64,000 nt of DNA from an uncultured archaeon (GCA_964486045.1 CAZALK010000013.1:108879-172878), one strand, 5' to 3'. Positions 17,835 to 24,281 are shown, counted from the stretch's first letter. Notes: generated from the letters alone by a model not told the origin. Made by a program: numbers and translations.

Positions 17835-18647
17835 TTAGCTTAATCGCTGAAATTTAATTGAATTTAAATACATATATGCATCTTTTACTTTTGTAATCTG
17901 GTTCTCAAAATAGTCCAATGAATGTGAATCAGAACCTACAAAAAAATTACCCCCTTCTTTTACTAATTGAGAAATTACTGATTTTGAAGGAAATGGTCGA
18001 CCAATAGGAAATCTTTCACCAGAAATATTGTATTCTATCTTAATTTTATTAGCTATGCACATCCGGCCTAATTTCAACACGCGTTCCTCTGATGTATTAC
18101 AATCTTTGGTAGGTTTTATATCATTTTCATTAATATAACGGAAAATCGTATCGATATGACAAAAATTTTTAAATATTTTTGAATTCACCATCATCTCACA
18201 AATCTCAAAATATTCATCAATAACGGTTTTTATCTTCTTTTTCTCCAACAATTTTACTAGCTTCTTCCTTGTTGTGACAGGATAACCATGAATCCATTCA
18301 TGGATTGTACCACCAATGAAATCTAATTCTCTGTTATAGTCATCCATGAACTCTAAGAGTTCGATTTCTCTATCTCTGTAGTATTCAACTTCAAGCCCAC
18401 TATAAATGAAATCATAAGTTTCTTTCAGTTCATCAATTTCTTCAAGGTAATTATCGATATTTCCTTCATAGAATGGATTTGTCTTATCTTTTTCAATCGA
18501 ATAAAGCTCAAAATGGTTAAGAAAACAGACGTTTATCTCATGAATTTCTGCTATTTTTATATAGTCTTCGAATTCGGGTCCGTCTTTAGGAACATCCATA
18601 CTCCATTTTGCAGTATGTACATGGTAGTCAGTGAATTTAAACTTCAT
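17835..18647 (-). CDS. PHP-family phosphatase (HisJ-like)
   Basis: DYHVHT, GLEVEY, GTIH, CHID, GSDSH. Confidence 0.85.
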   Translation of the reverse strand: MKFKFTDYHVHTAKWSMDVPKDGPEFEDYIKIAEIHEINVCFLNHFELYSIEKDKTNPFYEGNIDNYLEEIDELKETYDFIYSGLEVEYYRDREIELLEFMDDYNRELDFIGGTIHEWIHGYPVTTRKKLVKLLEKKKIKTVIDEYFEICEMMVNSKIFKNFCHIDTIFRYINENDIKPTKDCNTSEERVLKLGRMCIANKIKIEYNISGERFPIGRPFPSKSVISQLVKEGGNFFVGSDSHSLDYFENQITKVKDAYMYLNSIKFQRLS

Positions 18648-18696: not shown

Positions 18697-20604
18697 CTAA
18701 TCATTGGAATCCTCTTGGTCAAAAAATACTTCATAAAAAAGATCCTTTTCTCCTTGTTCCGGAGGGGTTATTTTAGTATTTCCTCCCTGCTGTATAATAT
18801 GAACAGTGCTTTTATTCTGAATATGTATCGTCCCATAGAACCCTTTAATTCCTTTTTCCTTTGCAATGATAATTAAATGTTGGTAAAGAAAGGTTCCGAT
18901 TCCATCTCCTCTCCATTTTTCAGATACGATAAAACTATATTCAGCCATGTTTAAAGAAGGATTTAAACTATAAGTTGCGTTTCCAATCATTTTTTCTCTC
19001 CCAACTTCCCCTATAAAAGCCCCTATAGAGAAAATTTTATCATAATCAATATTTACCTCACCTTGGGTTTTAGAATGTGTAAATTCTTTCCTTACTTCAA
19101 AGAATCGCAAATATCTGTCTGTCTCATTCAAAGTATAATATAAGTCTTTAAGTAATGCTTCATCTGTAGTTTTAACAGGTCTTATTCTAATTTTTTTATC
19201 ATTTCTGGCAGTGTAGATTGTCTCATATTCAGAAGGATATAAACATATGCGTCCATGTTCATCACAAGAAAGTAATTGGTCTGAATAAACATAATTTTGC
19301 TTCTTTGCTTCATCCAATAATGATTGTCTGAAGTCTGGATGAGCTATACATATCAATTCAAGCACTCTTTCTCTTATCGTTTTACCGTGAAGGTATGCTA
19401 CCCCCCACTCAGTCACAACATAATGTACATCCCCTCGAGACAGCATTATTCCTGCACCCTCATCTAAATGTGGAACTATACGTGATTTCTTGCCATCTCT
19501 AGAGGTTGAAGGTATAATTATAATAGGTTTACCTCCCTTCGAAAATGCTGCTCCTCTCATGAAATCAATTGTTTCTCCTAATCCTGAATAAAATTGATAA
19601 CCTTCTGTTGCGGCATTCACCTGACCTGTTAGGTCAATTTGCCGAGCAGAATTAATTGAAACCATCTTTTTATTCTTACCAATGTTTCTTGGGTTACATA
19701 CATAATCAGATGGATGAAATTCGATGAAAGGATTATTGTTTACAAAATCATATAATTTTTTAGTTCCTAAAGCAAAGCTAGTTATTACCTTTTCTGGATG
19801 GAAATTTTTTTTTCTACACGTTAAAATACCATTTTCTACGAGTGGAATTATGTTATCTGTTATGTAATGTGAATGCATTCCTAAATTTTTTTTCTCAGTT
19901 AAATATTTTAAAGCAGCATTCGGTAGATCTCCAAATCCCACATGAATTGTGGATTTATTTTCCACTAAATTTGCTAAATTTCTTCCAATTCTCTCAGCAA
20001 TTTCATCAGGTTCATCAAAATGAAATTCTAATAGAGGAGTGTTATTATAAACAAAATAGTCAATTTCTTTCATATGAATAAAACTGTTTCCTAAGGTACG
20101 GGGCATTTGAGGATTGATTTCAGCTATCGTTATATATGCTGATTGAGCTAAAGGTTTGGCGATATCTACATTGATCCCCAAAGAACAAAAACCATAAGGA
20201 TCTGGAACAGTTACTTGGATAAAAGCAACATCTATATGTTTCCGACCAGTTAAAAATAAGGAAGGTATTTCACTAGCAAATATAGGGGTATAATCTGCTT
20301 GTCCTTTATTAATCTCCTCACGAAGAGTCCTCCCGATGAAAAAGGCATTGTGTCGGAATAAATCTTCTGCTTTATTGATAAAATATTTTTCAGAACCAAT
20401 CGTTAAAAAATGAAGAATTTCAGTATCAATTAGCTTTTCTGACTGCTTTATCAATTCTGAAATTAATAATTTTGGTTCAGAGCAACCAGAGCCAATAAAA
20501 ACTCTATTACCTGTAATTATCTTGTTTATTGCATCTTCTGCCTTAAGCTCTTTATCCTTCCATTTTGATCTCCATGTCTCATCTAACAAATTAGGGTTTT
20601 TCAT
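18697..20604 (-). CDS. Acetyl-CoA hydrolase/CoA-transferase-like domain fused to a C-terminal Pat-type GNAT acetyltransferase
   Basis: AEINPQMPRTLG, QIDLTGQV, DFMRGA, DVHYVVTEWGVAYLHGK; GNAT motifs RYLRFF and AEYSFIVSEKWRGDGIG. Confidence 0.88.
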   Translation of the reverse strand: MKNPNLLDETWRSKWKDKELKAEDAINKIITGNRVFIGSGCSEPKLLISELIKQSEKLIDTEILHFLTIGSEKYFINKAEDLFRHNAFFIGRTLREEINKGQADYTPIFASEIPSLFLTGRKHIDVAFIQVTVPDPYGFCSLGINVDIAKPLAQSAYITIAEINPQMPRTLGNSFIHMKEIDYFVYNNTPLLEFHFDEPDEIAERIGRNLANLVENKSTIHVGFGDLPNAALKYLTEKKNLGMHSHYITDNIIPLVENGILTCRKKNFHPEKVITSFALGTKKLYDFVNNNPFIEFHPSDYVCNPRNIGKNKKMVSINSARQIDLTGQVNAATEGYQFYSGLGETIDFMRGAAFSKGGKPIIIIPSTSRDGKKSRIVPHLDEGAGIMLSRGDVHYVVTEWGVAYLHGKTIRERVLELICIAHPDFRQSLLDEAKKQNYVYSDQLLSCDEHGRICLYPSEYETIYTARNDKKIRIRPVKTTDEALLKDLYYTLNETDRYLRFFEVRKEFTHSKTQGEVNIDYDKIFSIGAFIGEVGREKMIGNATYSLNPSLNMAEYSFIVSEKWRGDGIGTFLYQHLIIIAKEKGIKGFYGTIHIQNKSTVHIIQQGGNTKITPPEQGEKDLFYEVFFDQEDSND

Positions 20605-20815
20605 TAAGGTTTTTTAAGTTTTATTTTCCATTTTTTAATATATAAAAATTAACTCCAGTTTTTTTATTAATTGTATTCTCATCAATATAATGTTTTTGAA
20701 ATTATAAATAAAATGTTTAAATCCATTCAGTTCTTAATTGATTTAGAAATATCCTTATAATATAAAAAAAATAATATATTGAATTATAATCTAGGATTCA
20801 AAAGTGCTAAAAATA

Positions 20816-22795
20816 ATGGCTAAAGAAGAAAGAATGAAGAGTATTCTTACTGAAAATCGAATTTTTAATCCAATTGATCTTAATCCTGAATATGCTAAAA
20901 CTGGAATGTCAATGGAAGAATATAAAAAACTTTACAATTATTCTATCGAAGATATGGAAGGATTTTGGGGTGAACAAGCAAATTCTCTTGATTGGTACAA
21001 ACCCTATGATAAAGTTTGGGAAAAAACAGATTTGTTCCCAGGAAAATGGTTTGTTGGAGGAAAACTCAATGTTGCCTATAACTGCCTAGATAGACATGTG
21101 AAAGCCGGGAAGGGTGATCATATTGCTATTATTTGGGAGGCGGACGAACCTGGTCAAGTTAGAAAATATACATATGATGAATTGTTAAAGGAAGTATCTA
21201 AAGTTGCTAATGGAATGAAAAAGCTCGGATTGCAAAAAGGAGACAGAGTTACTATTTGGTTACCGATGATCCCTGAGCTCGCAATAATCATGTTAGCGTG
21301 CGCTAGAATAGGTGTTATACATTCAATTGTGTTCGGTGGGTTTTCAAAAGAAGCTGTGAAAGATAGAATTGAAGATTCAGATTCTCGTCTTTTGTTTACA
21401 AGCGATGAAACTGTCAGAGCTGGTAAATTTTATCCTAAATTAGCTGATGTGGTTAAAATTATAGATAAGGTTCCAACTATAGAACATGTTATTGTTGTAA
21501 AACGTTCTGGAAGAGAAGTCACTCATACTAATAAAGATATCTGGTATCGCGAGTTTATTGAAGGTATGAGTGAAGAAAGTGAACCTGAAGAAATGGACTC
21601 TGAAGATACTTTATTCATTTTATATACAAGTGGAACAACTGGGAAACCAAAAGGAGTAAAACACACTACTGCAGGATACATTTTATACACTTCATATAGT
21701 CACAGAACCGTTTTTAATATCCATGAAGGCGATATATGGTATTGTACTGCGGATATTGGATGGATTACTGGGCATTCCTATATAGTCTATGGACCTCTCG
21801 CAAATGGTGCTACAAGCCTAATGTTTGAAGGGGTTCCTACTTATCCTGATGTTGATCGTTTTTGGGATATAGTAGAACATCATAAAGTTACCCATTTTTA
21901 CACAGCTCCTACGGCAATTAGAGCATTAATGAGATATGGGGATGAACCAGTAAAGAAACACGATATAAGTTCGTTGAAGCTTTTAGGAACTGTTGGAGAA
22001 CCTATAAATCCCGAAGCATGGACATGGTATCATAGAATAGTTGGAAAAAGTAAATGTCCTATAGTTGACACATACTGGCAAACTGAAACTGGGGGAATTA
22101 TAATGACACCTATAGCAACTGCGACACCGACAAAACCAGGATCTTGCTGTATGCCTTTTATGGGTATAAAACCAATAATTTTTGACCTTGAAGGAGAGGA
22201 AGTTACCGAACCAGATGAAGGAGGATATTTCGCGATGGGACAACCTTGGCCAGGTATGTTGAGGGATGTATGGAGAAATACTGAAAGATTTAAATCTACC
22301 TATCTTGAAAAATACCCGGGATATTATTACACAGATGATGGCGCCCGGCGAGATGAGGATGGATATTATTGGATATTGGGCCGTTTAGACGATGTTATTA
22401 AAGTATCTGGTCATAGAATTGGAACTATGGAAGTTGAATCTGCTATTGTAAGTCATCCAAGCGTTGCAGAAGCTGCTGTTGCTCCCTTTCCCCATAAAAT
22501 TAAAGGACAAGCAATTTATGCTTATGTAACTTTAATGCAAGGTGTTGAGAAATCAGCGAAGTTATCCAAAGAAATTAGAATGCATGTTAGACAAGAAATT
22601 GGTCCAGTATTTCAACCAGATGTCATACAATTTGCCGATGCTCTTCCAAAGACGAGAAGTGGTAAGATCATGCGAAGAATATTAAGAGCTATTGCCGCTG
22701 GCACTGATATCGGAAATGTAACAACACTAGCAGATCCATCAGTAGTAGATACCTTACTTGAAGAACGAAAGAAAATGGATATTGAAATAGGTTAA
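20816..22795 (+). CDS. acs: AMP-forming acetyl-CoA synthetase
   Basis: [58 protein letters not shown]. Confidence 0.96.
   Translation: MAKEERMKSILTENRIFNPIDLNPEYAKTGMSMEEYKKLYNYSIEDMEGFWGEQANSLDWYKPYDKVWEKTDLFPGKWFVGGKLNVAYNCLDRHVKAGKGDHIAIIWEADEPGQVRKYTYDELLKEVSKVANGMKKLGLQKGDRVTIWLPMIPELAIIMLACARIGVIHSIVFGGFSKEAVKDRIEDSDSRLLFTSDETVRAGKFYPKLADVVKIIDKVPTIEHVIVVKRSGREVTHTNKDIWYREFIEGMSEESEPEEMDSEDTLFILYTSGTTGKPKGVKHTTAGYILYTSYSHRTVFNIHEGDIWYCTADIGWITGHSYIVYGPLANGATSLMFEGVPTYPDVDRFWDIVEHHKVTHFYTAPTAIRALMRYGDEPVKKHDISSLKLLGTVGEPINPEAWTWYHRIVGKSKCPIVDTYWQTETGGIIMTPIATATPTKPGSCCMPFMGIKPIIFDLEGEEVTEPDEGGYFAMGQPWPGMLRDVWRNTERFKSTYLEKYPGYYYTDDGARRDEDGYYWILGRLDDVIKVSGHRIGTMEVESAIVSHPSVAEAAVAPFPHKIKGQAIYAYVTLMQGVEKSAKLSKEIRMHVRQEIGPVFQPDVIQFADALPKTRSGKIMRRILRAIAAGTDIGNVTTLADPSVVDTLLEERKKMDIEIG
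22603..22795 (+). repeat. Direct repeat copy 1 (acs 3' end, 193 bp)
   Basis: Matches 24089..24281 with 6 mismatches. Confidence 0.95.
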
Positions 22796-24088: not shown

Positions 24089-24281
24089 TCCAGTTTTTCA
24101 ACCAGATGTTATACGATTTGCCGATGCTCTACCAAAGACGAGAAGTGGTAAGATCATGCGAAGAATATTAAGAGCTATTGCCGCTGGCACTGATATCGGA
24201 AATGTAACAACACTAGCAGATCCATCAGTAGTAGATACCTTACTTGAAGAACGAAAGAAAATGGATGTAGAAATAGGTTAA
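24089..24281 (+). repeat. Direct repeat copy 2: orphan acs 3' fragment with stop codon and T-tract
   Basis: Encodes [25 protein letters not shown]...MDVEIG*; ~97% identical to 22603..22795. Confidence 0.95.

Follow-up and report, generated by a model that had tools for sequence, protein, structure and literature searches.

A CoA-transferase-like domain with a remodelled catalytic centre fused to a Pat-type acetyltransferase beside acs in an Asgard archaeon: a candidate regulator of acetate activation

Introduction

Reversible acetylation of acetyl-CoA synthetase (Acs) by Pat enzymes is the textbook case of bacterial metabolic control through lysine acetylation. Here we describe a gene of an uncultured archaeon, found in a window of 64,000 nucleotides (GCA_964486045.1 CAZALK010000013.1:108879-172878; the window is this whole stretch), whose product joins a coenzyme A (CoA) transferase-like domain to a Pat-type GNAT domain, and which is transcribed divergently from acs. 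The fusion protein is most likely a Pat-type lysine acetyltransferase with a regulatory module that is missing from published classifications. We give a probability of about 0.62 to its being a Pat-like off-switch for Acs, with a CoA-transferase-like domain that would stand in for the inactive NDP-forming ligase domain of PatZ.

The Acs residue that is acetylated by Pat enzymes is the A10 lysine (reviewed in PMC8556138 and PMC4053389). In type I and type II Pat, a catalytically inactive CoA-ligase domain binds acetyl-CoA and is needed for activity (PMC8556138, PMC12184503), and the ligase-like domain of PatZ brings about cooperative changes in its GNAT and contributes to the pocket in which Acs is bound (PMC12184503, PMC8556138). 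Type III Pat include the cAMP-GNAT of M. tuberculosis and M. smegmatis, the actinobacterial ACT-GNAT and the NADP-GNAT of M. xanthus, several of them with Acs as a shown substrate (PMC8556138). The five GNAT types published so far carry an NDP-forming ligase domain, a cAMP, ACT or NADP domain, or no such domain, and a CoA-transferase domain is absent from them (PMC8556138, PMC12184503). No description of a CoA-transferase-GNAT acetyltransferase was found in a full-text search of the literature and in the classification papers, and a bioRxiv paper on Asgard chromatin (10.64898/2026.07.02.735847) deals with other GNATs.

The fusion protein resembles type I Pat (Pat/PatZ, or YfiQ, of Salmonella enterica and E. 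coli; 9IT0, 9ISQ) in its C-terminal Pat GNAT, with the catalytic Glu (809 in PatZ, 555 here) and the P-loop, and in its large N-terminal domain taken from a CoA-handling enzyme and stripped of the catalytic residue (PMC8556138, PMC12184503). As in the PatZ/Acs/CobB sirtuin system, there is an association with Acs, and Sir2 deacetylases are encoded in the genome. By contrast, the N-terminal fold is unrelated to that of PatZ, being a class I CoA-transferase (about 440 residues) instead of an NDP-forming acyl-CoA synthetase (about 700 residues); the host is an Asgard archaeon and, in the window's lineage, the fusion gene lies head-to-head with acs. The analogy with the inactive regulatory domain of Pat, drawn in a preliminary description of the window, holds at this level, as that of Pat is an NDP-forming acyl-CoA synthetase without activity (PMC8556138). 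Among type III enzymes, Pat of M. tuberculosis is detectably related to the GNAT described here (4orf, NF058543), whereas the putative sensor of the fusion protein is a remodelled enzyme fold and not a dedicated small-molecule-binding module.

On the transferase side, fold and family are shared with the 4-hydroxybutyrate and butyryl-CoA:acetate CoA-transferases (AbfT 3GK7, 2OAS, 3EH7, 9VAG, RipA 3QLI) and with AarC (4EU3), from which the fusion protein differs in having lost the nucleophile Glu, the Asn that orients it, the GGQ motif and the Gln of the active site, and in carrying an extra C-terminal GNAT. Other Asgard families, and bacteria too, have CoA-transferase-GNAT fusions that retain the Glu. 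They have the same two-domain architecture (about 610-660 residues), and many lie beside acs or the gene for ADP-forming acetyl-CoA synthetase (ACD). Unlike the window's type, which is a derived clade, these proteins keep Gln, Glu, Asn and GGQ and may be active transferases.

Fold and family of the two domains

The Pfam parts of the fusion protein are PF02550 (1e-28), PF13336 (2e-61) and, at the C-terminus, PF00583 (2e-7, above its cut-off); ATP-grasp, CoA_binding and Succ_CoA_lig were not matched in the N-terminal domain in the same scan. As this domain matches PF02550 and PF13336, it does not have the homology to NDP-forming acyl-CoA synthetases that defines the regulatory domain of type I and II Pat. 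Its best solved relatives are 4-hydroxybutyrate CoA-transferases (9vag, with 398 bits, followed by 3eh7, 2oas and 3gk7), and the nearest NCBIfam family for the first 440 residues is butyryl-CoA:acetate CoA-transferase (TIGR03948; 245 bits against an equivalog cut-off of 675). An AlphaFold2 model of the fusion protein (104 sequences; mean predicted local distance difference test score of 90.5 and predicted template modelling score of 0.87) was matched by Foldseek to 3gk7 and 2oas with target-normalised template modelling scores of 0.93-0.94 and root mean square deviations of 1.8-2.2 Å. The identity in the structural alignments is 36-41% to AbfT (3GK7), 3EH7 and 2OAS, and about 31% to RipA. The two-domain alpha/beta fold of CoA-transferases is therefore present, as seen both in the N and C Pfam domains and in Foldseek. 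No other member of the CoA-transferase family turned up in the window's genome, which is 99% complete.

Residues 440-635 match solved Pat structures, namely the GNAT of S. lividans PatA (4nxy, 1.7e-11; also 4u5y), E. coli PatZ (9it0, 6.6e-11; also 9isq) and, further away, Sulfolobus Pat (3f8k) and M. tuberculosis Pat (4orf, E 1e-3). The nearest NCBIfam entry for the C-terminus is the mycobacterial 'acetyltransferase Pat' (NF058543, 4.7e-11, under its curated cut-off), and the matches to ArsN1 and phosphinothricin acetyltransferase are weak (3e-4 or worse). The alignment with PatZ starts at the 'YP' extension ahead of the GNAT core, continues through RP, D, Y.R(Y/F)F, EFTH and IDYD, and places Glu555 at Glu809 of PatZ (9it0), which we take to be the general base of Pat enzymes. 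The RGDGIG motif fits the definition of the acetyl-CoA P-loop, R/Q-x-x-G-x-G/A (PMC8556138). In an orthologue set composed of this protein and 120 Asgard orthologue clusters with 72-97% identity (121 sequences), Glu555 and the residues of the GNAT motifs are at least 98% conserved. The GNAT is thus of Pat type and, judging from its motifs, looks catalytically competent; RYLRFF, AE and WRGDGIG, which had been listed as kept in the preliminary description, are indeed all present in the translation. It is the sole Pat-type GNAT found in the genome.

A remodelled catalytic centre

The active site of class I CoA-transferases is well described in AarC, where Glu294 is the nucleophile (Glu249 in RipA), the external oxyanion hole is formed by the amide of Gly388 (said to be strictly conserved across the superfamily), which also touches the carboxylate of Glu294, Asn347 forms the internal oxyanion hole and orients Glu294, and Gln267 lines the same pocket (PMC4876117). 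The correspondence with the fusion protein was made via E. coli ScpC, aligned to Acetobacter aceti AarC and to the fusion protein, and it places His246 at Glu294, Glu344 at Gly388, Cys303 at Asn347 and His221 at Gln267. For Cys303, the register rests on N-x-P and on the downstream N...D..G anchors, the local alignment with AarC being of low identity. In HMMER alignments with solved 4-hydroxybutyrate CoA-transferases, LGMHSHYITD lies under LGVHTEMISD, LGIHTEMFSD and LGVHTEL, with His246 at the Glu of the motif, and SGLGETIDF lies under SGFGGQLDF, SGTGGQVDY and SGVGGQMDF. Both substitutions reported in the preliminary description, His for the catalytic Glu and GETIDF for GGQxDF, are consequently confirmed, and the nucleophile Glu, the external oxyanion-hole Gly and the internal oxyanion-hole Asn of class I CoA-transferases are all absent.

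The losses cluster at the catalytic centre. Thirty-eight stand-alone relatives that have Glu and GGQ served as the reference; of the 63 positions conserved among them at 85% or more, the fusion protein keeps 55, and five of its eight differences (Q221H, E246H, N303C, G344E and Q345T) are located at this centre; in the active stand-alone relatives, Asn at 303 and Gln at 221 are each present in 97%. The new residues are themselves conserved. In the orthologue set, position 246 is His in 116 sequences, Tyr in four and Leu in one, and it is never Glu; position 344 is acidic throughout (Glu in 62, Asp in 59), Thr345 is found in 120 of the 121 sequences, and His221 and Cys303 are present in all of them. 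In divergent loci of the window's type (see below), His221 is changed to Gly in L030 and Cys303 to Ser in L039, while His246 and the acidic residue at 344 are kept. Over the 120 orthologue clusters, the mean identity is 80% for the transferase-like domain and 77% for the GNAT.

From these alignments, the canonical transferase chemistry (Glu-anhydride/thioester ping-pong) is predicted to be disabled in the fusion protein, and the domain appears to be remodelled and not decayed, with four or five residues of the centre swapped for a new conserved set. The proposal of a 'probably dead' CoA-transferase is hence correct as regards the lost nucleophile and the degenerate GGQ, but the domain is not simply dead. 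It is very improbable that it is an evolutionary leftover which only stabilises a protein working as a plain GNAT. Although loss of catalytic residues is recurrent among the fused proteins (the Glu is missing from 35 of the 83 representatives discussed below), the domain is more conserved than the GNAT, its replacement residues are maintained, the fusion persists in Asgard archaea and bacteria, and the non-catalytic domain of PatZ is essential for activity (PMC12184503).

The acidic residue at position 344 deserves special attention. Among fused representatives it is limited to those that have lost Glu246 (7 of 35, compared with 0 of 48 that retain it; Fisher p = 0.0016, kinship not corrected), and the tree suggests that it was gained in about four independent events. 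The closeness of His221, His246, Cys303 and Glu344 is taken from the description of AarC (PMC4876117). In the simplest reading, a contact between His246 and the carboxylate at 344 would replace that between the Glu carboxylate and the Gly amide, forming a compensated pair that would keep the pocket packed with the nucleophile gone; the backbone amide of the oxyanion hole may persist at Glu344.

Asp/Glu344 or Cys303 could, alternatively, support new chemistry. It is unlikely, though conceivable, that the transferase-like domain has an enzymatic activity and the protein is bifunctional, for instance using up or interconverting acyl-CoAs as well as acetylating proteins, with Asp/Glu344 as a migrated nucleophile, with Cys303, a His and Asp/Glu forming a thiol acyl-CoA hydrolase or acyl-enzyme, or with a bound metal. 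The invariably acidic 344 and the almost invariant Thr345, the location of Glu344 where the amide of AarC Gly388 meets the nucleophile carboxylate (PMC4876117), the restriction of acidic 344 to proteins without Glu246, the recurrent change of Asn303 to Cys across many fused lineages and a degree of conservation at least equal to that of the GNAT all speak for such an enzyme. However, Asp and Glu are exchanged at roughly 1:1 among close orthologues, a poor fit with a precisely placed nucleophile, the four canonical residues of the centre have all changed together, a carboxylate at the oxyanion-hole position should disfavour the thioester oxyanion, and no complete triad or metal site is invariant. 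An invariant metal site or Cys-His-acid triad was in fact downgraded as a candidate because of Gly at 221 in L030, Ser at 303 in L039 and Tyr or Leu at 246 in five clusters. In the preliminary description, an acidic residue at the catalytic position (e.g., the Glu of GET) in a protein with transferase activity was named as a finding that would speak against the proposal. The invariant Asp/Glu344, at the oxyanion-hole Gly beside the old nucleophile position, may on sequence evidence be such a residue.

Linkage to acs

A scan of species-representative genomes for loci of the window's type gave 40 loci, 39 of them Asgard, and 35 had sufficient flank to be informative. In 31 of these, acs lies divergently upstream of the fusion gene, in two it lies convergently downstream (L027 and L039), and two are without acs within 6 kb. 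The linkage noted in the window is thus found in 33 of 35 informative loci. In the most divergent of them (L023, L025, L027, L030, L035, L037 and L039), acs still adjoins the fusion gene and the other neighbours are almost all gone, with the exception of L023, which retains an open reading frame (ORF) similar to PHP-family proteins; in L027 and L039, acs has stayed adjacent after rearrangement.

The product of the window's acs scores 977 bits with NF001208 (cut-off 657) and 945 bits with TIGR02188 (cut-off 725), has the A10 lysine in the P-x-x-x-x-G-K motif (PKTRSGK), in agreement with the preliminary description, and is the sole close Acs in the genome. The same genome codes for three SIR2 homologues.

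The wider family of CoA-transferase-GNAT fusions

A search of 1.8 billion cluster representatives returned many fused proteins of 600-660 residues with 31-51% identity, whose named members belong to Promethearchaeia, Heimdallarchaeota and Desulfobacterales. In sampled Asgard genomes, the fused family is present in 165 of 301 and is concentrated in 6 of 30 families. Out of 83 fused representatives, 48 have the catalytic Glu and 35 do not (Asp in 16, then Gln, Pro, His, Phe, Gly, Ala, Val, Cys, Ser, Ile and Thr). The loss of Glu that had been described for the window's protein extends to all its close orthologues, but not to the family as a whole.

Neighbouring genes with related functions are also observed in other fusion lineages. 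For instance, one type of Asgard fusion (f9) adjoins an acs that is 55% identical in seven of seven loci, another (f18) is convergent with acs in two of two loci, and a copy of a third (f24) is followed by an ACD gene. In one bacterial phylum, there are seven loci with ACD directly upstream of the fusion gene and in the same orientation, and five with an Acs-like ligase gene and an ack/pta fusion upstream of the CoA-transferase-GNAT gene. The clades that are linked to acs or ACD are scattered on the tree of the transferase domain, and most of these linked relatives keep the full catalytic set (Gln, Glu, Asn and GGQ); the association with acetyl-CoA synthetases therefore belongs to the fusion architecture and not to the loss of catalysis. 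As a consequence, the tie between acetate activation and a dead transferase, as initially proposed, needs revision, since fusions with complete Glu, Asn and GGQ adjoin acs or ACD as well. The 'dead sensor' state appears, from the residues at the centre, to be specific to the window's lineage and not a property of the fusion family.

In the bacterial operons L040 (L040:1108-3606), L076 and L078-L080, the gene situated between those for the Acs-like ligase and the CoA-transferase-GNAT protein codes for a protein of 815-832 residues that combines a part similar to acetate kinase with a phosphotransacetylase domain.

Most genomes of the window's family hold two or three paralogues, including an E-type one, similar to P0124 and with Gln, Glu, Asn and GGQ intact, and the acs-linked His-type; the window's genome has the His-type only. 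In the tree, the His-type is sister to P0123 (Phe246, Asp344), and the E-type clade of P0124 comes next, so the His-type arose through duplication and remodelling. The neighbours of P0124-type genes (HhH-GPD, radical SAM, peptidases and the like) gave no functional lead. In-frame stops in P0124-type genes were set aside, as they look like read-through of the natural stop, such rows being mostly matched to query residue 634.

Two further groups of proteins were observed in these searches. In a stand-alone clade of about 425 residues (P0225, P0226, P0243, P0248, P0254, P0257, P0261, P0264 and others), the nucleophile Glu is replaced by Gly, GGQ is kept, and the equivalent of Asn303 is mostly His; this clade is a candidate for another non-canonical branch of the CoA-transferase family. 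Additionally, some fused members (P0126 and P0129, of about 960 residues, and P0158, P0173 and P0192, of 955-1013 residues) have an extra domain of about 340 residues before or after the CoA-transferase-GNAT core, and all of them are without the catalytic Glu.

Proposed function

The reading as a Pat-like off-switch for Acs is based on a GNAT of Pat type that looks competent, a constrained domain whose original chemistry appears disabled, the linkage to acs, the like neighbours of independent fusion lineages, the presence of SIR2 homologues and the precedent of Pat. In this model, the GNAT would use acetyl-CoA to acetylate the PKTRSGK lysine of the neighbouring AMP-forming Acs. Acetate activation would thereby be shut down, and removal of the acetyl group by one of the three Sir2-type deacetylases would restore it. 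The transferase-like domain would most likely bind CoA or an acyl-CoA and would probably mediate oligomerisation, and in this way gate or shape the activity of the GNAT. What the sequences show is the architecture, the residue replacements and their conservation, the gene linkage and the presence of deacetylases, whereas Acs as the target, ligand binding, acyl-CoA sensing and allosteric coupling are inferred.

A more specific proposal can be made for the signal, although we consider it quite unlikely. The rebuilt centre (the His246-Asp/Glu344 pair with Cys303 and His221), located where the acyl-CoA thioester sits, would report acyl-CoA/CoA status through S-acylation of Cys303, a CoA disulfide or a metal. 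In relatives that retain the Glu, the signal itself would be the covalent glutamyl-CoA intermediate of the ping-pong cycle; the domain would sense the acyl-CoA/carboxylate ratio by switching between two states and so gate a lysine acetyltransferase acting on acetyl-CoA synthetases.

Several points weigh against the off-switch model. The PHP-like ORF, PAP2, GTPase and TFB neighbours are also kept in 26-32 of the same 40 loci and, as they are conserved equally among close relatives, much of the acs synteny in Asgard archaea is shared ancestry. The nearest Glu-retaining paralogue (P0124 type) is near acs in none of 19 loci. Many acs-linked relatives keep the catalytic set, so transferase catalysis may matter throughout the family, and in the window's type a new catalytic centre or metal site could be made up of the invariant acidic 344, His246 and Cys303, in which case the domain would be an enzyme and not a sensor. 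The genome encodes about 15 other AMP-forming ligases, which are equally possible targets. Finally, Acs acetylation and ligand binding by the N-terminal domain are predictions from sequence and gene linkage. Because the other neighbours are kept as well, acs synteny by itself was rejected as strong evidence, and the weight was moved to divergent loci and independent lineages; the persistence of acs in the former and the like neighbours in the latter strengthen the linkage.

The abundance of ligases raises the possibility that the main substrate of the GNAT is not Acs but another acyl-CoA synthetase, ACD, a histone, another protein or a small molecule, with acs adjacency reflecting co-regulation around acetyl-CoA supply. 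This would be consistent with a single Pat-type GNAT in a genome with so many ligases, with the related fusions that adjoin ACD instead of Acs, with the P0124-type paralogue that has no acs neighbour and with the many substrates of PatZ itself (PMC12184503). We regard it as distinctly unlikely, as the fusion gene is head-to-head with the only close acs in 31 loci, this adjacency outlasts rearrangements, Acs is a shown substrate of type I, type II and ACT-type III Pat (PMC8556138), and the GNAT groups with protein and not with small-molecule acetyltransferases.

The Pat catalytic module is coupled here to a different CoA-handling fold. If the off-switch model is true, a sixth type, defined by its architecture, would join the known protein acetyltransferases of prokaryotes. 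The fusion would also give a handle on how acetyl-CoA status is passed to protein acetylation in the closest archaeal relatives of eukaryotes, and the family, whose transferase domains range from apparently active to remodelled, would offer a natural gradient in which the change from enzyme to regulatory module can be studied.

Gene organisation and additional observations

The coordinates of the fusion gene, acs and their main features are collected in Table 1; the features named in the preliminary description, among them the His246 and PKTRSGK Lys codons, were all confirmed at the positions given there. The host is an Asgard archaeon, as indicated by the neighbouring genes (Gtr1/RagA/Arf-like GTPase, TFB) and by homologues assigned to Promethearchaeota, Hodarchaeota and Thorarchaeota.

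Table 1. Position of the fusion gene, acs and related features, counted from the first nucleotide of the window.
Feature	Position	Strand	Basis
Fusion gene (P0001), 635 residues: CoA-transferase-like domain and Pat-type GNAT	18697..20604	-	ORF, translation, Pfam
4-hydroxybutyrate-CoA-transferase-like domain, residues about 10-440, remodelled catalytic centre	19285..20577	-	PDB matches, Foldseek
Pat-type GNAT domain, residues about 454-620	18745..19245	-	Solved Pat GNAT relatives
Glu555 codon (GNAT)	18940-18942	-	Aligned with PatZ Glu809
RGDGIG, GNAT residues 565-570	18895-18912	-	Acetyl-CoA P-loop motif
His246 codon, at the nucleophile Glu position (AarC Glu294)	19867..19869	-	Alignment
Glu344 codon ('GET'), at the external oxyanion-hole Gly position (AarC Gly388)	19573..19575	-	Alignment, PMC4876117
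Cys303 codon, at the internal oxyanion-hole Asn position (AarC Asn347, N-x-P register)	19696..19698	-	Alignment
His221 codon, at the active-site Gln position (AarC Gln267)	19942..19944	-	Alignment
Divergent intergenic region, 211 bp	20605..20815	.	Candidate shared promoter/operator
acs, AMP-forming acetate-CoA ligase	20816..22795	+	NF001208, TIGR02188
A10 Lys codon in PKTRSGK of acs	22664..22666	+	Sequence; role of Lys from PMC8556138, PMC4053389

The acs reading frame opens at GTG 20804, and the alignment of orthologues indicates that the conserved start is ATG 20816 (MAKEE). With this start, the spacer measures 211 bp, as against the approximately 210 bp first estimated, and the PKTRSGK lysine is residue 617 (Lys621 when numbered from GTG 20804). 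Alignment of 18 orthologous spacers showed a near-invariant block of 67 bp (20681-20747) with TATA-like runs inside it, the remaining AT-rich spacer being variable; this block may be a shared promoter or operator. The Rfam scan of the spacer between acs and the fusion gene gave no match.

On the same strand as the fusion gene and 49 nucleotides downstream of it, an ORF of 270 residues (17835-18647, minus strand) is kept in 32 of 40 related loci and is possibly co-transcribed with the fusion gene. Pfam gave no match for this ORF; its product starts with DYHVHT and has a weak match to the PHP-family histidinol phosphatase 2yxo (E 0.05).

Two observations concern acs itself. In another Asgard genome, the acs orthologue has an insert of 32 nucleotides (L020:2909-2940, minus strand) between codons 508 and 509 (…PGYY before and YTGDGARRD after it), with a short repeat at its flanks and located within a predicted helix; it is a candidate mini-intron or else a frameshift. 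In the window, about 1.3 kb downstream of the intact acs, the final 63 codons of this gene (residues 601-663) are duplicated at 24090-24278 (plus strand) with 97% protein identity, the PKTRSGK region included.

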